Virus record (IMG/VR): IMGVR_UViG_3300032268_000759
Coordinates: 64,001 to 128,000 of that record
DNA from: an uncultured virus (IMG/VR IMGVR_UViG_3300032268_000759)
Taxonomy: Duplodnaviria; Heunggongvirae; Uroviricota; Caudoviricetes
DNA: 64,000 nt
Strand: one strand, 5' to 3'
How positions within the stretch are numbered: the first letter of the stretch is position 1; every line of letters begins with the position of its first letter. Below are positions 2,844 through 56,645 of the stretch, piece by piece. The notes under the pieces were generated by a model. That model searched no databases, was not told the origin of the DNA, and saw nothing but the letters and a program-made list of their open reading frames with translations. The position numbers and the translations under genes were made by a program.

Positions 2844-3235
2844 AACTATCAGATTTAAGAAAATTAATTAAAGAAGAATTAACTAATATAACTGGAATGC
2901 CAGTTGAAGAAGTAGCTCACAAATTAGAAAAAGATGAGTTAGGTAAATTCTATGTGGTAACAAAACCCACAGATATGAAAGATGAGAATATGATTGAAAC
3001 TAATATTCTTGAATTTGCTAAGAAAATTAAATCAGGTGAAATAGATGAAGCTCGAATCATGGGTGTATATGAAAAATCAGGTTCAGCTAAAACTAGAGCT
3101 AAAGAATTAATGAAAGAAATTGAAGATGAATTAAACGAACTTCAATTAACTATGGATGAATATAGAACTAAAAAATCAGAAATAGAAGAGAAAAAAGCAA
3201 AAGCAGCAGAAATTATTAAAAAATATAAAAAATAA
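2840..3235 (+). CDS. Hypothetical protein with MKLSDLRKLIKEEL leader and C-terminal coiled coil
   Basis: ORF with overlapping start and stop codons. Confidence 0.7.
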   Translation: MKLSDLRKLIKEELTNITGMPVEEVAHKLEKDELGKFYVVTKPTDMKDENMIETNILEFAKKIKSGEIDEARIMGVYEKSGSAKTRAKELMKEIEDELNELQLTMDEYRTKKSEIEEKKAKAAEIIKKYKK

Positions 3236-4569
3236 TGAAATTAACTGATATATATAAAGCTATTAAGGAAAAAATGAGTGAAGAAGATATTCTTGCTACA
3301 TTAAAAAAACAATTAGATCCTAAAAGTACAGTTAAAGTAAATAAACCTGTAGTTAAGCCAAATATTATCTATACTGATAAAGCAAATGAAGAAGTAGCTG
3401 AAGCCTATAGACAATACAATGAAGAAGCTGTTGATCTTGATAAGGAAATAATTGACAATACTACTGGAAGACCAATTGTAACATATATCCTTCCAAAAAA
3501 TGGTGATGGTTCATATAATGTTATTTATAATGATGCTACTACAGGTGTGATATATGTAAGTAATGATGCTTGGGATGAAATTAATAATTTAAATCAACCA
3601 AATATGAATGAAGATGAGACAGAAGAATTATCTGAAGCATATGTCCCTGATAATATTAAGAAGTTTGCAAAACAAAAAGGTGCTAGCTCATTAGTAAACA
3701 AAATAGCAGGTTGGGCTGAAAAAGCTGGCAAAGGTATTCGTGGTGGAACAGCAATTGGAAAAAATTATAGTACTCTTATTTTAGATTTATCATATCAAGA
3801 CGGAGCTATTCGTATTAATCTTGATGACTATACAATTGAATTATATGGTGAAGAAGTTAACAGCTTTAATGAATTCAAATCAGTTTTAGCAAAAGAACCA
3901 ATGGATAAAATGGATATGAATGAAGAATTCACACGTATACAAAAATTAGCAGGTGTAATCACAGAAAGTCAATATAAAGAAAAATTAAATGAAATAACTA
4001 TGAAAAAACAAATTTTAAATGAAGAATTCAAACGCATGCAAAAACTAGCAGGCATTATTAATGAAAATCAAATCAATGAAGTTGAAGTAGATAAAGAAAA
4101 ACTAATGCCTATATTTGATGAAGTATTTAATGATAAAATACAAGACTATTCATCACTAGTAGGTACAGATCCTATTTATGATGGTTTAAATAATGTGATC
4201 AAAGATCCAAGTGTTAAACAAGCAATATTTGATTGGGCTTATTTAATAACAACTGAGGATGAAGATGACGAAGAAGAAGTAATAGATATGTTTGGAGGTT
4301 ATGTTAGTGATGGTGTTGATTATAAAATCATGAAAACTTTTACCCCTCAATTAGCTAAAAACTTAATAAAAGCAGGATTTACTTATGATAAAGATGAGGA
4401 TATATGGACTATCCCTCAACCATACTTAGATAAAATAGATAGTTCATTTAACTACTCAGATGGCGCTACATCTTATGGTATTATTTGGGATGTTTGGGGT
4501 GTAGATTATGATACAAGTCCTAGAGAAAATATAGGCTCTTATTTAGAAGACGCTGCCCAAGAATTATAA
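3235..4569 (+). CDS. Acidic modular putative head-internal protein with two RxQKLAG[IV]I motifs
   Basis: 444-aa ORF; motif shared with the C-terminus of the scaffold protein; many (I/L/M)-x-E sites. Confidence 0.65.
   Translation: MKLTDIYKAIKEKMSEEDILATLKKQLDPKSTVKVNKPVVKPNIIYTDKANEEVAEAYRQYNEEAVDLDKEIIDNTTGRPIVTYILPKNGDGSYNVIYNDATTGVIYVSNDAWDEINNLNQPNMNEDETEELSEAYVPDNIKKFAKQKGASSLVNKIAGWAEKAGKGIRGGTAIGKNYSTLILDLSYQDGAIRINLDDYTIELYGEEVNSFNEFKSVLAKEPMDKMDMNEEFTRIQKLAGVITESQYKEKLNEITMKKQILNEEFKRMQKLAGIINENQINEVEVDKEKLMPIFDEVFNDKIQDYSSLVGTDPIYDGLNNVIKDPSVKQAIFDWAYLITTEDEDDEEEVIDMFGGYVSDGVDYKIMKTFTPQLAKNLIKAGFTYDKDEDIWTIPQPYLDKIDSSFNYSDGATSYGIIWDVWGVDYDTSPRENIGSYLEDAAQEL
3919..4065 (+). repeat. 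Two imperfect 48-bp direct repeats encoding NEEFxRxQKLAG[VI]IxE
   Basis: 3919-3966 versus 4018-4065. Confidence 0.85.
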
Positions 4570-4694: not shown

Positions 4695-6008
4695 ATGAAT
4701 AAGAAAATTGTAATTGTAGGTAGTGGAGTAGCAGGTATTAGTGCTGCATTAAAATTAGTAGATAATAACTACCTAGGAGAGTTAATTACCATTATAGATA
4801 AAGGTAATGATCCTTATGTTCGTAAACCAGAAGAAGTAATGACAGGATTCGCTGGGGCTGGAGGATTCTCAGATGGTAAACTTACTTATCATACTTCAAT
4901 TGGTGGTCAATTAAGTAAATATTGTGGTGAAGAAAAAGCTTATGATTTAATGGATCAATCTATTGAAATGTGGAAACGTTTCCACCCGGATCCATCTAAA
5001 ATAATGTACTCAAATCCACAATCTGAACCGGATTTTATTAAACCTCATTTTGGTCTTCGTTTATTCCCAGTTTACCATATTGGTACAGATTATTTACACG
5101 AAATAGGAAAAACATGGTATCAATATTTAGTTGATAAAGGTGTTAAATTTGAATGGAGAGCAGAAGTTAAAACTATAGATTTTAATAACAATACAATTAA
5201 AATTGTAAATGTAGATCATACTGAATTACAAGCGAGTATATCATATGATAAACTTGTATTCGCAGTAGGTAAATCAGGTATTGACTTTGGTAAAAAATTA
5301 GCTGATGAATATGAACTACCTACAGAAGCTAAATCAGTGCAAATAGGGGTCCGTTTTGAATCACCACAAAAATACTTTCAAAAATTAATTGATATTAGTT
5401 ATGATTTTAAATTATATCAAAAGTTTGATAATGTGTCATTACGTTCATTTTGTACTAATAATAACGCAGCTTATGTAGCGGTAGAAGAAACATATGGTGA
5501 TGTCACATATAATGGTCATGCTAAAAAAGGTGAAGAGTTTAGAAATGATATGACTAACTTTGGTATATTAATGGAAATTAAAGGTATTGAAAATCCATTT
5601 GAATGGTCACGTCATGTAGTAGGACAATTACAAGTTGATGGTAAAGGATTATATTACTCACCAAACAAAACACGTAAACCAGGTATAACATCAGAAGGAA
5701 CAATTGTATCAGCATATCAAATAGATGATTTAGAAGAATTTGATGAAGTATTAGGTGAATACGCAAATTATATTATTAATTTTATTGATAATATGGATGA
5801 AGTATTTGGATTTGGTGATGACTGGGGTATGTATTTACCAGAAGTAAAGTATCTATCACCTGAACCATTAGTAAATTATACTAACTTAGCATTAAATGAA
5901 TTTCCAAATGTATATTTTGTTGGAGATGCATTGAGTGCTCGTGGTATTACTGTTTCAGGAGCGCATGGGATATATGTTGCTGAATATTTATTATCAAATA
6001 ACAACTAA
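4695..6008 (+). CDS. NAD(P)/FAD-dependent oxidoreductase
   Basis: N-terminal Rossmann motif VIVGSGVAG, GAGGFSDGK and C-terminal YFVGD FAD motif. Confidence 0.85.
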   Translation: MNKKIVIVGSGVAGISAALKLVDNNYLGELITIIDKGNDPYVRKPEEVMTGFAGAGGFSDGKLTYHTSIGGQLSKYCGEEKAYDLMDQSIEMWKRFHPDPSKIMYSNPQSEPDFIKPHFGLRLFPVYHIGTDYLHEIGKTWYQYLVDKGVKFEWRAEVKTIDFNNNTIKIVNVDHTELQASISYDKLVFAVGKSGIDFGKKLADEYELPTEAKSVQIGVRFESPQKYFQKLIDISYDFKLYQKFDNVSLRSFCTNNNAAYVAVEETYGDVTYNGHAKKGEEFRNDMTNFGILMEIKGIENPFEWSRHVVGQLQVDGKGLYYSPNKTRKPGITSEGTIVSAYQIDDLEEFDEVLGEYANYIINFIDNMDEVFGFGDDWGMYLPEVKYLSPEPLVNYTNLALNEFPNVYFVGDALSARGITVSGAHGIYVAEYLLSNNN

Positions 6009-15242: not shown

Positions 15243-15857
15243 ATGAAGCAGGTATTAATAGAAACCCAATTATTTCAAATATCTCCTAAACAATTAAGTG
15301 AAGGAGTTAAATCAACATCAGGTAATCCTATTGTTGAAGGAATATTAGCTACAGCTGAAGTAAAAAACGGTAATGGACGCTATTATAAAAGAGAATTATG
15401 GGAACGTGAAATAGACAAATACCTATCTAGTGTTAAAGAAAATAGAGCACTTGGTGAATTAGACCACCCAGAATCATCGATAATCAACCTTAAAAACGTG
15501 TCTCATAATATTAGAGGCTTATGGTGGGATGGTGATAAGGTAATGGGTAAAATCGAAATACTTCCAACTCCTTCAGGTAACATATTAAAAGCATTAATTG
15601 AAAACAACATTACTGTAGGTGTTTCATCACGTGGTATGGGTAGTTTAAAACAATTAGGTGAAACAATGGAAGTACAAGATGACTTTGAATTGTTATGCTG
15701 GGATTTTGTTTCAACTCCATCAAATCCAGGTTCATGGATGAAACCAATTAATGGAATGATGAATGAAGGATTAATATCAACATTAAATCCATATGCTAAA
15801 GTAAATTCTGTTATTACAGAAATATTATGTGCTAATGGATCTTGTCCAATATTTTAA
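15243..15857 (+). CDS. Prohead protease (T4 gp21-like)
   Basis: NGNGRYY, ALGELDHP, GVSSRGMGS, WDFVSTPS. Confidence 0.93.
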   Translation: MKQVLIETQLFQISPKQLSEGVKSTSGNPIVEGILATAEVKNGNGRYYKRELWEREIDKYLSSVKENRALGELDHPESSIINLKNVSHNIRGLWWDGDKVMGKIEILPTPSGNILKALIENNITVGVSSRGMGSLKQLGETMEVQDDFELLCWDFVSTPSNPGSWMKPINGMMNEGLISTLNPYAKVNSVITEILCANGSCPIF

Positions 15858-16054: not shown

Positions 16055-17152
16055 ATGACAAACAGAGATTTGTTAAAAGAGGCTATTGCCGATGCTAAAG
16101 CTATCAAGGATACTGCTATAGCAAACGCTAAATCTGCTTTAGAAGAATCTTTTACACCTCATTTGAAGTCTATGTTAGCTGCTAAAATCAATGAAATGGA
16201 CAACTTCTATGAAGAAGATGATACCATGGAAGAAGTAGAAACAGACTTAAATGAAATGAAAGATGAAGATGAAATGGATGAAGTAAAAAAAGAAACTTAT
16301 TCAGAAGCAACCGAAGAAATGGATGAAGAAATCAATTTAGACGAATTGCTAGCTGAGTTAGAATTAGAAGAAACTGTAACTGAAGCTAAAGAAGAAATGG
16401 AAGCTGAAGAAACAGAAGAAGAAGGTGAAGAAGAAGAAGGTGAAGAAGAAATTGATCTTGAAAACATGTCAGAAGAAGATTTGAAAAACTTTATTGAAAA
16501 CGTAATTGAAGATATGATCACAGATGGCGAAATTGAAGCTGGTGATGGTATGGAAGGCGAAGAAGAAGTTGAAGATGAAACTGAAGAAGAAATCAATATT
16601 GATGAAATCTTAGCTGAACTAAAAAGTGAAAAAGTTGAAGAAGAAATGAGTGCTGTAATGGGTGCTTCTGCAACTGCTGGATTAGCTGAACTAGCTAAAA
16701 TGTTTAAAAAAGGGCTTATTTCTCTTAATGACTTTTTAGAAAAAGTAGCAGCTGCATCAGCTCCAGGCTTTTCTAAAGGTATGAATGAAGAAGAAAAAAT
16801 GAAAGACGAGTTAAAAGAAGCATATGCAGTAGTAAAAACTTTACACTCAGAACTTAATGAAATCAATTTATTAAACGCTAAATTACTTTACACTAATAAG
16901 ATTTTCAAATCGAAAAACTTAACTGAAACTCAGAAAGTAAAAGTATTAACAGCATTTGATAAAGCTACTTCTAAAAAAGAAGCACAATTAGTTTATGAAA
17001 CTTTATTAGGAGGATTAAAATCAGAAACTAAATCTCCAATTAAAGAAAATTTAGGTAGAGCATCTAAATCAGCAGGTGTTTCCGTTAAAAATCCTATTGT
17101 AGAATCAAATGAAATGGTCAATAGATTCCAAAAATTAGCTGGTATTATTTAA
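16055..17152 (+). CDS. Prohead core scaffolding protein (T4 gp22-like role)
   Basis: Very acidic, helical, located between protease and major capsid genes; ends RFQKLAGII. Confidence 0.8.
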   Translation: MTNRDLLKEAIADAKAIKDTAIANAKSALEESFTPHLKSMLAAKINEMDNFYEEDDTMEEVETDLNEMKDEDEMDEVKKETYSEATEEMDEEINLDELLAELELEETVTEAKEEMEAEETEEEGEEEEGEEEIDLENMSEEDLKNFIENVIEDMITDGEIEAGDGMEGEEEVEDETEEEINIDEILAELKSEKVEEEMSAVMGASATAGLAELAKMFKKGLISLNDFLEKVAAASAPGFSKGMNEEEKMKDELKEAYAVVKTLHSELNEINLLNAKLLYTNKIFKSKNLTETQKVKVLTAFDKATSKKEAQLVYETLLGGLKSETKSPIKENLGRASKSAGVSVKNPIVESNEMVNRFQKLAGII

Positions 17153-17179: not shown

Positions 17180-18859
17180 ATGAACAACATTCAATCTCTA
17201 TTAGAAGGTGCTAATCCTTGGAAAGCGTTACAAACAGACGCTACCCGATTAGCAAACAAATGGGCTAAAACTGGCCTATTAGAAGGTTTAAAAACCGAAA
17301 CTGACAAAAACAATATGTCAATGATGCTTGAAAATCAAGCAAAACAATTAGTAATGGAATCATCACAAACTGGTGCTGGTACCGCAGGTGCTGCATTTAC
17401 AGCAGGTGTTGGTGAGCAGTGGGCAGGTGTAGCATTACCATTAGTACGTAAGGTATTTGGTCAAATCGCTGCGAAAGAATTCGTTAGTGTTCAACCAATG
17501 AATTTACCTTCAGGTCTAGTGTTCTTCTTAGATTTCCAATATGGAACAACTAAATCTCCATTTAGAGCAGCTGCTGGTGCAGGTTTCTACGGAACTGAAT
17601 CTATGTATGGTAATACCAATCCAGGAGAAACAGCTAATCCTAATGGTGGTTTATATGGTGCTGGTCGTTTCTCGTATTCAATCAACAACACTTCATCATT
17701 CTCATCTGCTACTGTAGCAACAGCTTCATGGTCAGATTTTAACTTTGATTCTAACTACTCAGCTTCAGTAGTTGCGGGTACTGGTACTCCAAACTGGAAA
17801 AAAGTAACTATTACTTTACCATCAAACACAGATTTTAATGGTGTACGTGCATTTACAGTAGTTTCACAATCAGGTTTCCAAGCTGCTGATATTCAAGCTG
17901 CTTACACAACTACAACTGGTACTGTATTCAGTGGTACAACTGGAACTGTTACTTTCTTAGTAACTGGTTCATTAACTGGTCAAGTTGCTACATTAGCAAA
18001 TGTAACTGCTTCATTCCAATTACAACCAACTGATCAATTACGTGGTGATTTTGAAGATGGTAACACTAGCTTAAATGCTACTAACAACCCAATCACAATC
18101 CCTGAAGTAAATGTTAAAATGAAGTCAGAGCCAATTGTTGCTAAGACTCGTAAGTTAAAAGCTGTATGGACTCCTGAGTTTGCACAAGATTTGAACGCTT
18201 ACCATGCATTAGATGCTGAAGCTGAATTAACTTCAATTATGAGTGAGTACATCTCATTAGAGATTGACTTAGAAATCATGGATATGTTGATTGAAAATGC
18301 TTCTGCAGGTACTGAGTACTGGTCAGCAATTAACAACCAACAATTTGATGGTAGTACATTTGTACAACAATCATCTACAACTGGTGGTTTCTACAATACT
18401 CAAGGTGGTTGGTTCCAAACTTTAGGAACTAAATTCCAAAAGTTAAGTAACAAAATCCATCAAAAGACTTTACGCGGTGGCGCTAACTTCTTAGTATGTT
18501 CTCCATCTGTAGCTACAATATTGGAATCAATTCCAGGATTTGCTGCTACTTCAAATGGTGATGCTGCTAAAATGAACTATGCTTTTGGTGTACAGAAAAT
18601 GGGTAGCTTAAACACTCAATACGAAGTTTACAAGAATCCATATATGCTTGAAAGTACCATCTTGATGGGCTTCAAAGGTAAGCAATTCTTGGAAACAGGA
18701 GCGGTATTTGCTCCATACATTCCGTTAATCATGACTCCATTAGTATACGATCCAGATACATTTACTCCACGTAAAGGTCTATTAACTCGTTATGCTAAGA
18801 AAATGGTTCGTCCTGAATTCTACGGTAAAGTATACGTAAGTGGTTTAAGTAGCATCTAA
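17180..18859 (+). CDS. Major capsid protein (T4 gp23-like)
   Basis: VQPMNLPSGLVF, AKTRKLKAVWTPEFAQDLNAYH, YIPL, PRKGLLTRY. Confidence 0.96.
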   Translation: MNNIQSLLEGANPWKALQTDATRLANKWAKTGLLEGLKTETDKNNMSMMLENQAKQLVMESSQTGAGTAGAAFTAGVGEQWAGVALPLVRKVFGQIAAKEFVSVQPMNLPSGLVFFLDFQYGTTKSPFRAAAGAGFYGTESMYGNTNPGETANPNGGLYGAGRFSYSINNTSSFSSATVATASWSDFNFDSNYSASVVAGTGTPNWKKVTITLPSNTDFNGVRAFTVVSQSGFQAADIQAAYTTTTGTVFSGTTGTVTFLVTGSLTGQVATLANVTASFQLQPTDQLRGDFEDGNTSLNATNNPITIPEVNVKMKSEPIVAKTRKLKAVWTPEFAQDLNAYHALDAEAELTSIMSEYISLEIDLEIMDMLIENASAGTEYWSAINNQQFDGSTFVQQSSTTGGFYNTQGGWFQTLGTKFQKLSNKIHQKTLRGGANFLVCSPSVATILESIPGFAATSNGDAAKMNYAFGVQKMGSLNTQYEVYKNPYMLESTILMGFKGKQFLETGAVFAPYIPLIMTPLVYDPDTFTPRKGLLTRYAKKMVRPEFYGKVYVSGLSSI

Positions 18860-38985: not shown

Positions 38986-41127
38986 ATGGCTGATCCAAAT
39001 CAAAATATAAGAGACGGTAAAAAAGATCTTAATGAAATAAGTGCTATTGTTGGTGCATTAGACGATGGATTTCAATCGTTAACTTCCCGATTAACTGATT
39101 TAGCAGAAGGATTATCTAATATAGTTGATGATGCTAGAGCATTCTCCAGAGTACAAAAAGATACAATATCTACATTAAATAAATTAGCTAAAACTAATGA
39201 AAAATTAATTAAAAATCAAATTGATTTAAATAATGGTCAGTTATCATCTAAAAAAATAAATGAACAAATAAATGAAATAACAGCTACAAGAGAAGTTCTT
39301 AATCAAAGATTAAATAATTTATTAGCAAAACAAACTCAGAACTTAGTATTATCTCTAAATGAATTAGATGAAATAAAAACTTTACAAGAAGGTATAGCTG
39401 AAATAACAGGAGAAGTAACAGATAATTATAAGAATCAATTAAATTTTGCTAAAGAAATTGAAAAAAGAGCTGGAGGATTTCAAAAATTAGCAGGAGTAGT
39501 CAAATCAATTCCTGGTCTAAAAGGATTAGCTGGACCATTTCAAGATGCTGCTGATTCAGCTGCTAAAGCAGCCGCCAGTGGAAAAAGTACTTTCCAGATA
39601 TTTAAAGCAGGAGCTGGGGGATTAATGTCATTCCTTAAAGGTCCAATTTGGATAACTGCTTTAGTTACAGCAGCAAAATTCTTTTTAGATGCTATGTTTG
39701 ATGCTGATAAACGTGTCACAGATATAGCTAAGAATTTTTCAATATCTAAAGACAGTGCTAGAGCTCAATATGAGGTTTTAAAATCCTCAAAAACAGTTTT
39801 AACATCAATTTTAGACTCAACTAAAAATATAACTGAAGCTTTTAATGAGTTAGCTTCTTTATCTGATTTTGTATATCAAGCTTCATTTAAACAACTTGAT
39901 ACTCAAATACAATTAACTAAGGAAATAGGTATTCAAGCTGAAGAGGCTATTCAACTTCAACAATTATTTGTCTTAAATAATAATGAATCTGATAAAGGAT
40001 TAGATATAATATATGATCAAATAGCAGCTTTTGCTAATCAGAATAAAATAGTAGCTGATGGTAGAAAAATTATAGCAGATGTAAATAGACTAAGTGGTCT
40101 AATAAAACTTAATTTTAGAGGTAACACAGGTGAAATAGTTAAAACAGTTTTAGAAGCTAAAAAATTAGGTTTAACATTAGATCAAGTAGCCAAAACTCAA
40201 AGTTCATTATTAGATTTTGAATCATCAATCTCAGCCCAAATAGAAGCTGAGTTATTAACTGGAAGACAAATTAATTTAGAAAGAGCTAGATTATTTGCTT
40301 TAAATAATGATATAGCAGGTTTAACTGAAGAAATAGCTAATCAAAATATTACTGCTGCTTCATTTAGTAGAATGAATGCTATACAACAAGAATCTATAGC
40401 TAAAACATTAGGAATGAGTGCTAATGAATTAGGTGATACTTTATATAAGCAAGAATTAATAAACAAAGCTGGAGGTCAGGAATTAAAAAATAAACGTGAA
40501 ACTATTAAATTATTAGAATCACAAGGTAAATTAAGTGAAGCAGCACGTTTACAACAAGAATTAACAGCATTAGAAGGAGGATTATTACGTGGTGAAGCTT
40601 TAGAGGATGCTCAAAAATCATTAGATGCTCAAACTAAATTTGAAGCTTCATTAGAAAGAGCAAAAGAAATATTCTCTGATCTTGTTGATGGTGGAGCAAT
40701 AGATAAACTATCAGACTTTATTATAAAATTTGCTAACGCTTTATCATCAGGACAATCATTAGCTAGTATATTGCTTCGTGGACCAAAAAGTGAAAATAAA
40801 GAAGAGAGACAAAATCGTCAAATGTCATCTTTAGGTGTATCTCAATCTGAGATTAAACAAATACAAAAAGAAGAAGTCATAACAGCGGGTCCTGGTCCTA
40901 AATTTGCAGAGGGAGGAATTGTTAGAAAACCAATTTATAACGCTACTGTAGGTGAAGCTGGTCCTGAGGCTATTATACCACTAGATAAATTTGATGGATT
41001 TATGAAAAGTCAACAAGAAACTAATATGTTATTAAGACAATTAGTAAATAAATCAACAGATATAACACTTAACGGTGAAAGATTAACCAACGGCTTAGCT
41101 AAACAAACATATGCCTTAGGTTCATAA
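38986..41127 (+). CDS. Tape measure protein
   Basis: Long helical Ala/Leu-rich protein after the chaperone; C-terminal FAEGGIV...VGEAGPEAIIPL. Confidence 0.8.
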   Translation: MADPNQNIRDGKKDLNEISAIVGALDDGFQSLTSRLTDLAEGLSNIVDDARAFSRVQKDTISTLNKLAKTNEKLIKNQIDLNNGQLSSKKINEQINEITATREVLNQRLNNLLAKQTQNLVLSLNELDEIKTLQEGIAEITGEVTDNYKNQLNFAKEIEKRAGGFQKLAGVVKSIPGLKGLAGPFQDAADSAAKAAASGKSTFQIFKAGAGGLMSFLKGPIWITALVTAAKFFLDAMFDADKRVTDIAKNFSISKDSARAQYEVLKSSKTVLTSILDSTKNITEAFNELASLSDFVYQASFKQLDTQIQLTKEIGIQAEEAIQLQQLFVLNNNESDKGLDIIYDQIAAFANQNKIVADGRKIIADVNRLSGLIKLNFRGNTGEIVKTVLEAKKLGLTLDQVAKTQSSLLDFESSISAQIEAELLTGRQINLERARLFALNNDIAGLTEEIANQNITAASFSRMNAIQQESIAKTLGMSANELGDTLYKQELINKAGGQELKNKRETIKLLESQGKLSEAARLQQELTALEGGLLRGEALEDAQKSLDAQTKFEASLERAKEIFSDLVDGGAIDKLSDFIIKFANALSSGQSLASILLRGPKSENKEERQNRQMSSLGVSQSEIKQIQKEEVITAGPGPKFAEGGIVRKPIYNATVGEAGPEAIIPLDKFDGFMKSQQETNMLLRQLVNKSTDITLNGERLTNGLAKQTYALGS

Positions 41128-54920: not shown

Positions 54921-56645
54921 ATGAGCATACAAGTAGATACAAGTAAATGGATTAAGGGTAAAGATTACCCAGAGTGGATGGATGATATAGCTATCAGCAT
55001 GATTTCAAAAGGTTATTTATTACCTGATGAAAATGTTTTTGACGCTTATAAAAGAGTAAGTAAAGCTGCTTCACGTAGATTAAAACGTAAAGATTTACAA
55101 CCATTCTTTATGGAAGCAATAGTTAAAAATTGGTTATGCTTAGCATCACCTGTATTGTCAAATATGGGTACTGAACGTGGAATGCCTATTTCATGTTTTG
55201 GTATTGATGTTGGTGATTCAATTGAAGGAATTGCTGAAGCAAACGCAGAATTAATGCGTTTATCATCACAAGGTGGAGGTGTTGGTATTGGGTTATCTCG
55301 TATAAGAGGACGTGGTAAAAACATTAAAGACAACGGTATAAGTGAAGGTGTAGTGCCATGGGCTAAAATATATGATTCAACAATATTAGCTACAAACCAA
55401 GGTAGTGTTCGTAGAGGAGCAGCTTCAGTTAATTTAAATATTAACCATCCAGATATTGAAGAATTTTTAATGATTCGTAGACCAAAAGGTGATGTTAATC
55501 GTCAATGTCTAAACTTACATCAGTGTGTAGTTGTAGATGATGTGTTTATGGATAAACTTGAAAATAAAGATCCTAAATCATTAAAAATATGGGGTGAGAT
55601 TTTAAAAACACGTCTTGAAACAGGTGAACCTTATATTATGTTTGGAGATAATATTAATAAGGCAAATCCTCAAGCGTATAAAAATAACAATCTTCAAGTA
55701 TCAATGACAAACATTTGTACTGAGATTGCTTTATACACAGATGAGTTACATTCATTTATATGCTGTTTATCTTCATTAAATTTATCTCGTTGGGATGAAT
55801 GGAAAGATTATAAGTTTGAAAATGGAATGACATTACCTGAGTTATCAACTTGGTTTTTAGAAGGAGCATTACAAGAGTTTATTGATAGAGCAAAAAATAT
55901 TAAGTTTTTTGAAAATACAGTTCGCTCAGCAACAAAAGGAAGAGCAATTGGATTAGGTATTTTGGGTTGGCATACATTCTTACAATCAAAAGGATTACCA
56001 TTTGTAGGTATTCAAGCGAACGCTTATACAAGAATGATATTTGACTTTATTGAAAAAGAAGCACTAAAAGCATCTCGTGACCAGGCAATTGAATATGGTG
56101 AACCAGAATGGTGTAAAGGAACAGGTTTAAGACATACTCATCATTTAGCACCTGCACCAACAGTATCAAATGCTCATATATCAGGTGGAGTTTCACCTTC
56201 AATTGAACCAATACCTGCTAATGTTTATAATTTAAAAACAGCAAAAGGAGTATTTATTAAACGTAATAAAATACTTGAAGCATTACTTGAACAAAAAGGA
56301 TATAATATTGATAGTGTTTGGGATCAAATTTTAAGAGACCAAGGTTCAGTAGTGGGTTTACCAGATTATATTTTAACTGATGAAGAAAAAGAAATATTCT
56401 TAACATTTAAAGAAATTAATCAATTAGAAATTGTTAAACAAAATGGTATTAGGCAACAATATGTTGATCAAGCAATATCTTTAAATTTAACATTTGATCC
56501 AAATGATTCTCCAAAATGGATTAGTCAAGTACATAAAGAAGCTTGGAAACAAGGAATTAAAACACTTTATTATCTAAGAACAGAATCAGTATTAAGAGGA
56601 GATAATTTACAAAGATTATCAGATTGTGTTAGTTGTGAAGGTTAA
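54921..56645 (+). CDS. nrdA: Ribonucleotide reductase class Ia alpha subunit (no ATP cone)
   Basis: ISCF, GGGVG, TNICTEI, CCLSS, APTVS, KTLYY, C-terminal CVSC. Confidence 0.93.
   Translation: MSIQVDTSKWIKGKDYPEWMDDIAISMISKGYLLPDENVFDAYKRVSKAASRRLKRKDLQPFFMEAIVKNWLCLASPVLSNMGTERGMPISCFGIDVGDSIEGIAEANAELMRLSSQGGGVGIGLSRIRGRGKNIKDNGISEGVVPWAKIYDSTILATNQGSVRRGAASVNLNINHPDIEEFLMIRRPKGDVNRQCLNLHQCVVVDDVFMDKLENKDPKSLKIWGEILKTRLETGEPYIMFGDNINKANPQAYKNNNLQVSMTNICTEIALYTDELHSFICCLSSLNLSRWDEWKDYKFENGMTLPELSTWFLEGALQEFIDRAKNIKFFENTVRSATKGRAIGLGILGWHTFLQSKGLPFVGIQANAYTRMIFDFIEKEALKASRDQAIEYGEPEWCKGTGLRHTHHLAPAPTVSNAHISGGVSPSIEPIPANVYNLKTAKGVFIKRNKILEALLEQKGYNIDSVWDQILRDQGSVVGLPDYILTDEEKEIFLTFKEINQLEIVKQNGIRQQYVDQAISLNLTFDPNDSPKWISQVHKEAWKQGIKTLYYLRTESVLRGDNLQRLSDCVSCEG

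Follow-up and report, generated by a model that had tools for sequence, protein, structure and literature searches.

The C-terminal tail of a gp22-like scaffolding protein recurs as a leader on many small proteins of T4-like phages and is a putative capsid-targeting propeptide

We report that the peptide with which the gp22-like scaffolding protein of a T4-like phage ends is found again, mostly as an N-terminal leader, on a large number of otherwise unrelated small proteins encoded by its relatives. The peptide is conserved and portable, it is under selection at the protein level, it adjoins a protease-type site, it was found in viruses only and it occurs in the head module. We consider it probable that this peptide, hereafter the tag, arose from the scaffold tail and serves as a capsid-targeting propeptide, which the prohead protease would cut off.

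Genome Context and Head Module

The window, i.e., the whole stretch of 64,000 nucleotides that was analysed, comprises bases 64001-128000 of the 154,840-bp phage genome IMGVR_UViG_3300032268_000759 (G+C 29.6%). Pfam searches identified an S77 prohead protease and a Gp23 capsid protein in the window, as in T4-like phages (Table 1). The scaffold gene between them is syntenic with the scaffold genes of Flavobacterium phage immuto, Microcystis phage Mel-JY01, LR756508 and many IMG/VR loci; by capsid identity, immuto (56%) and Mel-JY01 (~50%) are the closest cultured relatives. In alignments the capsid protein has a strongly conserved N-terminal propeptide of ~60 amino acids, ending in L-V-M-E. The acidic low-complexity region of the immuto scaffold (L002:2092-3333; NC_055915 gp067) has probably led to its erroneous annotation as 'DNA polymerase phi-like protein'; its position and homology identify it as a gp22-like scaffold. 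The annotation of Mel-JY01 places a gene for ribosomal protein S21 (RpsU; L005:615-842) between those for the prohead protease and the scaffold.

Table 1. Features of the head module, of ORF 3235 and of the tag copies (positions are those of the window unless marked as genome positions).
Feature	Position	Strand	Remarks
N-terminal tag MKKQILNEEFRRMKKIAGLITE	genome 53119		183-aa ORF; tag is a KKIAG variant
N-terminal tag MNNQFKRMQKLAGLITE	genome 59007		270-aa ORF
ORF 3235, 444 aa, two cargo modules joined via two tag copies	3235-4569	+	
Class-1 type N-terminal leader MKLTDIYKAIKEKMSEE	3235-3285	+	read directly
Module A folded core, aa ~135-220	3637-3894	+	pLDDT 64-80
Tag copy 1 NEEFTRIQKLAGVITE, aa 229-244	3919-3966	+	internal/C-terminal class
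Spacer SQYKEKLNEIT	3967-3999	+	contains a further L-N-E site
Tag copy 2 MKKQILNEEFKRMQKLAGIINE, aa 256-277	4000-4065	+	complete N-terminal-class leader including Met
Module B, aa 278-444	4066-4566	+	cargo body of second gene; pLDDT 70-92
Prohead protease, Peptidase_S77, T4 gp21 family	15243-15857	+	Pfam PF03420, E = 1e-30
gp22-like scaffolding (prohead core) protein, acidic, 365 aa	16055-17152	+	between protease and capsid genes
I-V-E protease-type site, 15 residues before scaffold C-terminus	17096-17104	+	
Scaffold tail SNEMVNRFQKLAGII	17105-17149	+	31 aligned tails
Major capsid protein, Gp23 family	17180-18859	+	Pfam PF07068, E = 3e-77

Conservation of the Scaffold Tail

The scaffold ORF ends in IVESNEMVNRFQKLAGII, followed by the stop codon. 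An initial annotation of this DNA had quoted this end together with two peptides of ORF 3235, and a direct check of the sequence found all three quotations correct. An alignment of 31 scaffold tails shows no variation at R, L, A, and G and at least 90% conservation of Q, K, and I; a Glu approximately 15 residues before the C-terminus, which forms part of an I/V-x-E site, is kept in at least 90% of the tails. A cut at the I-V-E site of the scaffold would free the tail peptide. The initial annotation had named conservation at the scaffold end as a test of its interpretation, and the motif was indeed present there in all relatives examined, e.g., SRWQKLAGIIK in immuto, ERMKKLAGIVK in Mel-JY01, and SRMQKLADIS in LR756508. 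The same pattern was seen in eleven IMG/VR loci holding protease and/or capsid genes. When IMG/VR was scanned for RMQKLAGII with no further constraint (i.e., the Glu was not required), this string formed, among the matches listed, the last residues of ORFs of 300-500 amino acids in 98 of 102 new loci; where the locus includes the capsid gene, these ORFs sit just upstream of it. A weakened tail can be followed down to ~36% capsid identity (ERIKRLAGL in RM378, TLKTLAGRKAK in LR756511).

The gp22 of T4 itself (L229) has the C-terminus SVYAKVASRF, at best a faint echo of the motif, which can be aligned with x-F-Q-K-L-A-G-I-I as [FY]-x-K-[LV]-A-[GS]; the resemblance is weak. In one locus (L124:8126-10262) the protease and the scaffold are each spread over two ORFs and the tail of the scaffold is degenerate (FARMRALAFYNSKH); frameshift errors in the assembly are the probable cause. 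In another (L081:3167-3721) an ORF of 184 amino acids in the head module, directly upstream of the scaffold, has a scaffold-like C-terminal end, ANRFKKLAGINKK, and is possibly a second core protein. The helical amphipathicity of the tag peptide is moderate (hydrophobic moment, muH, ~0.5) and not significant, since 9-18% of shuffles equal or exceed it.

Copies of the Tail Peptide on Other Proteins

The motif [RK]-x-Q-K-L-A-G-[ILV] occurs at the scaffold end (17123-17149) and at two sites within ORF 3235. A regex search of the whole genome for the loose motif gave five copies, whereas 200 residue shuffles contained 0.015 on average and reversed sequences contained none; the two further copies are both N-terminal and both lie upstream of the window (Table 1). 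A weaker sixth copy, GGFQKLAGVV (39478-39504), lies within ORF 38986-41127, which encodes a coiled-coil, tape-measure-like protein of 713 amino acids. It has no flanking I-x-E site and its segment has no homologue in four related genomes; this copy was excluded from the tag system.

In IMG/VR, a degenerate DNA pattern encoding F-x-R-x-QKLAG[IV]I-x-E was found at more than 118 loci, where an estimate from base composition predicts well below one, and in 596 Gb of bacterial and archaeal genomes it had no match. A tblastn search of the tag against 50,697 phage records returned immuto only. Among the matches listed, approximately 100 of 127 instances lie 8-9 residues past the start Met of small ORFs, the leader consensus of which is MKKQILSEEFRRMQKLAGIITE; at least ~100 small ORFs in IMG/VR open with M-K-K-Q-I-L-S-E-E-F-R-R-M-Q-K-L-A-G-I-I-x-E. 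The 101 unique bodies behind this leader, again among the matches listed, fall into 67 unrelated BLAST clusters. A comparison of 68 tagged proteins with Pfam and PHROGs gave only isolated matches to DUF or unnamed families, and when the canonical immuto copy served as query of a word search, 5.8 billion proteins yielded 78 further clusters, all unannotated. The word-based homologue search with the ORF at genome position 53119 gave only 4 matches because its tag is the KKIAG variant.

The invariant R, L, A, and G of the tag are each encoded by four to five synonymous codons, and positions that the search pattern left free are conserved too (e.g., Met in 105 of 106). Since synonymous sites vary while the residues stay fixed, selection acts at the protein level. 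The number of cargo copies in complete relatives ranges from one to four; immuto, the only cultured carrier, has two, gp083 and an ORF near 25.06 kb, whereas in Mel-JY01 and LR756508 the scaffold tail is present and cargo copies are absent. This indicates that the tail is the older element and that the cargo leader derives from it. A tandem cargo array was observed at L123:4618-7223, where five consecutive small genes each begin with a tag (MKKQILSEEF[IT]RMQKLAGI...); the five proteins have no detectable mutual similarity and each is a singleton BLAST cluster.

The initial annotation had proposed that the scaffold peptide is reused in unrelated proteins, and this is borne out both by the five copies in the genome and by the unrelated bodies at the IMG/VR loci. 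It had also asked whether matches would be restricted to scaffolds and virion-internal proteins: those listed comprise scaffold ends and small virus-only ORFs, and none is cellular. Its view of the tag as a second route, separate from the N-terminal leaders, did not stand, since outside scaffolds the tag is nearly always itself an N-terminal leader and is rarely found at the C-terminus or in a linker between modules. Its interpretation as a whole is thus partly supported.

A second and more abundant family of N-terminal leaders, class-1 (MKLSDLRKLIKEE, MIKLIDILNEV, MKKSELKEYIKE and similar), occurs on many unrelated ORFs, i.e., at positions 1002, 1644, 2840, and 3235 of the window, at positions 55476, 59121, 60046, and 63705 of the genome (L227), and in loci of relatives (L007, L037, L052). 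Some proteins with a class-1 leader also bear the QKLAG tag, and in L134, L174, L066, L052, and L037 a class-1 leader at the N-terminus is combined with a tag at the C-terminus. In the protein at genome position 59007 the tag is followed by a linker of 20 residues and then by MKKSELKKQIKE.

Protease-Type Sites and Gene Context

Directly after the motif, [ILVM]-x-E is found in 104 of 112 unique non-terminal tags, and an L-[SN]-E site usually stands before the Phe of the tag. Also in the scan that left the Glu unconstrained, x-E comes next in every non-terminal RMQKLAGII match among those listed. Proteases of the T4 gp21 family cleave after [LI]-x-E, and the sequence of T4 gp23 contains an L-T-E consistent with this rule. 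Given the flanking [ILV]-x-E and L-[SN]-E sites, the peptide would leave both cargo and scaffold as a 14-15-mer. The S77 prohead protease encoded in the window is the presumed enzyme taking off the tag.

In L068, L115, L063, L121 (two genes), L124, and L081 the genes for the prohead protease and the scaffold have a tagged ORF between them. In other places tagged genes are grouped at a variable locus next to a homologue of ORF 4695, as they are in the window. ORF 4695 (4695-6008; 437 amino acids) is FAD/NAD-binding-like and has homologues in ~50 loci, with 54-78% identity in most relatives; in many of these it forms one edge of the hypervariable cargo locus.

ORF 3235, a Fusion of Two Cargo Genes

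Judged from its sequence, ORF 3235, which has no Pfam or PHROG family, is an in-frame fusion of two cargo genes, and it is because of this fusion that its tags are internal. Module A is homologous to parts of multi-module ORFs (L052, 60% identity; L037, 44%; G002, 63%), within which its residues ~105-238 recur. Residues 256-444, i.e., tag copy 2 with module B, have 60-66% identity to free-standing, tag-led ORFs of 188-200 amino acids (L075, L093, L029, L045). The initial annotation had likened MKKQIL at position 4000 to the N-terminus of a fused gene, and the free-standing genes of the relatives do start in this way; the Met at 4000 is an ancestral gene start. Tag copy 2 is near-identical to the N-termini of ~100 IMG/VR ORFs, among the matches listed, and of immuto gp083, the N-terminus of which (MKKQILSEQFRRMQKLAGIITE) nearly equals the window sequence from 4000 onward.

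The initial annotation had further described both copies as bracketed by x-x-E sites, which proved accurate: copy 1 has M-N-E before and I-T-E after it, copy 2 has LNE and INE. The class of copy 1 (the L/M-N-E-E-F form, internal or C-terminal) is also found in L033, L042, L077, and L108, and extensions of the type E-[SE]-[EQ]-Y-K, resembling the spacer of ORF 3235, follow the tags in relatives. The two copies are identical at 38 of 48 nucleotides, and 4 of the 12 codons for identical residues differ synonymously; a recent tandem duplication at the DNA level was rejected on account of these synonymous differences.

An AlphaFold2 model of ORF 3235 has folded modules at residues ~135-220 and ~285-444 and places both tags in a helical linker, at low confidence (pLDDT below 60). 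A Foldseek search of the model against the PDB gave no match at E <= 0.001. The head protease could separate the two modules.

Discussion

In the mechanism that we propose, the peptide core F-x-R-M-Q-K-L-A-G-I-I would serve as a portable prohead-targeting propeptide, the presumed original of which is the scaffold tail. At the extreme C-terminus of the scaffold in a large T4-like clade, this tail would grip the growing shell, by analogy with other scaffolds. In an immuto-like subclade the peptide would have been copied onto many unrelated small proteins, mostly at their N-termini, and these proteins would co-assemble into the prohead core in the manner of the scaffold. Once the shell is complete, cleavage by the S77 prohead protease at the flanking [ILV]-x-E sites would free the cargo inside the head and break down the scaffold. 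Within ORF 3235, module A would carry a trailing tag and module B would retain its own full leader, including the Met at 4000. Binding, packaging, cleavage and the identity of the receptor are inferred. It may be that the tail dates far back among T4-like phages and that T4 shares it.

Because the cargo leader copies the conserved tail of the scaffold, one receptor should serve both. The C-terminus of the scaffold binds the coat in P22, phi29, and HSV-1. By this analogy, together with that of 80alpha and CpmB (see below), and because variation in the cargo tags does not follow that in the scaffold tail of the same genome, we favor the coat, with the major capsid protein as candidate receptor, at a probability that comes close to even without reaching it; a receptor in the scaffold or core is unlikely, and others make up the remainder. 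Co-folding of the capsid protein with the 50-residue scaffold tail, using alignments, gave a score of 0.00 in a run without controls, which we take neither as support for binding nor as evidence against it. Tentatively, we propose that gp23-type capsids are loaded by way of the peptide as a general and transplantable signal, which would bind a single defined site on the coat or its propeptide, that of the scaffold tail.

The same targeting could also work through association of scaffold with scaffold in the core, the cargo co-polymerizing with gp22-like molecules or binding the portal, a reading to which we assign a minor share of the probability. It would agree with the acidic and helical character that many tagged proteins have in common with the scaffold, and with the description of the T4 internal proteins as encapsidated into the scaffolding core (PMC3012670; PMC9958956). 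However, in L121 the scaffold ends in RMRELAGLKK while the cargo carries RMQKLAGIITE and RMQLLAGLITE, and such an absence of co-variation with the genome's own tail is more easily reconciled with a conserved third-party receptor than with homotypic pairing; moreover, the 80alpha scaffold binds the coat protein (PMC5644958), and its C-terminus is the coat-binding part, as in P22, phi29, and HSV-1. Some observations count against our preferred reading, i.e., targeting by a tag that stems from the scaffold tail. Where a genome carries cargo tags, these are often closer to the canonical motif than its scaffold tail is (tails RFQKLAGII, RFKKLAGL, RMRELAGLKK, RWQLLAGI), although a primary ligand would be expected to be the more canonical of the two; the high copy number of the scaffold and avidity could be a reason for this. 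The differing sequences of the T4 gp22 end and CTS and the only moderate amphipathicity of the peptide also count against it. In the literature searched, no virion proteomics of immuto or Mel-JY01 was found.

Three further readings are each much less likely than targeting. The peptide might be a recognition or recruitment element (an exosite or degron) for the S77 protease and not an address for head entry, as the adjoining [ILV]-x-E sites and the occurrence on the scaffold, the chief substrate of the protease in T4 (PMC9958956), might suggest. This seems quite improbable, given that the capsid protein is a predicted substrate, with L-V-M-E in its propeptide, and lacks the motif, that most class-1 leaders end in similar sites without the motif, and that a substrate meets the protease only inside the prohead, so that targeting would still be needed. 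The hypervariable cargo genes, often clustered beside the ORF 4695 homologue, resemble shuffling cassettes, and the peptide might accordingly have nothing to do with heads and be a helix for interaction with host or phage factors, or a cassette boundary for recombination or expression. Such a role is very improbable: synonymous sites are unconserved, so that DNA or RNA is not the object of selection, the same peptide is the scaffold end in at least about 100 genomes, and several tagged genes lie inside the protease-scaffold-capsid module. Least likely of all, to the point of being negligible, is a resemblance by chance or low complexity in an AT-rich genome; a G+C content of 30% and a proteome rich in K, I, L, N, and E might foster it, but the shuffle test, the IMG/VR count and the null result in cellular genomes refute it.

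If the tag is indeed such a general loading signal for gp23-type capsids, a large uncultured T4-like clade packages and injects a hidden, hypervariable arsenal of more than 60 protein families, which are probably early-acting anti-defence or takeover factors, and this cargo would be recognizable from a leader of 20 residues alone. The tag would also be a means, from sequence only, to list candidate packaged, and probably injected, proteins of uncultured phages; as nearly all tagged proteins are ORFans, they form a pool in which to search for anti-defence functions. ORF 3235 could be explained as a polyprotein-like fusion that the head protease resolves. For capsid engineering the tag would offer a natural loading signal with a built-in protease release site, and its homology to the scaffold tail would point to the core-assembly receptor in T4-like heads.

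Comparison with Known Systems

Systems of this kind are already known, both in the CTS of T4 and in the mimicry of scaffold tails. The T4 CTS has the sequence MKTYQEFIAE. The tag has no resemblance to it and the T4 head-module proteins lack the motif; since both the gp22 end and the CTS differ in sequence, nothing carries over directly from the T4 model. In T4 an N-terminal CTS of approximately 10 amino acids targets proteins to the gp22 core by a mechanism that is unknown (PMC9958956), among them the internal proteins IPII and IPIII (Mullaney and Black, 1996, as cited in PMC9958956), and the placement of proteins in the T4-type scaffolding core is said to "remain mysterious" (PMC9958956). Both cases concern a short N-terminal peptide common to otherwise unrelated, hypervariable proteins, in a phage with a gp21-type protease, a gp22-type scaffold, and a gp23-type capsid, and in both the leader ends in an [IL]-x-E site; that of T4 is removed after assembly, and the same is predicted here. 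The tag differs in its length (~22 versus ~10 amino acids), in its occurrence also at C-termini and between modules, and in its homology to the phage's own scaffold tail, a link that has not been reported for T4. In phage P1 the N-terminal 30 residues of DarB suffice to direct a protein into a myophage head, but the Dar N-termini share no consensus and there is no separate scaffold (PMC9024508). Here, in contrast, a strict consensus is common to scaffold and cargo.

With the coat-binding tails of the P22, phi29, 80alpha, and HSV-1 scaffolds, the tail described here has in common its extreme C-terminal position and its conservation among relatives. In 80alpha and CpmB the contact with the coat is made by C-terminal helices. 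Dearborn et al. (2017; PMC5644958) describe the 80alpha scaffold and SaPI1 CpmB as competing for one site on the coat protein. CpmB, however, is the rival scaffold of a satellite and alters capsid size, whereas the mimics proposed here are the phage's own cargo, of dozens of families, usually with an N-terminal tag and with flanking protease sites. The herpesvirus protease UL26 and the scaffold UL26.5 share a C-terminal capsid-binding tail; UL26 enters the procapsid via the scaffold's tail, which the maturation protease then cuts off. That shared tail results from nested in-frame genes; in the phages described here, independent genes have received copies of the peptide. In encapsulins short conserved terminal peptides direct diverse cargo into an HK97-fold shell. 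This is an analogy only, since encapsulins are cellular compartments without scaffold, protease, or DNA and their motif is unrelated.

The motif string was not found in the literature searched. What appears to be new is the visible homology between cargo leader and scaffold tail, its strict conservation, and the fact that, in a large clade of mostly uncultured phages, dozens of protein families bear the leader.
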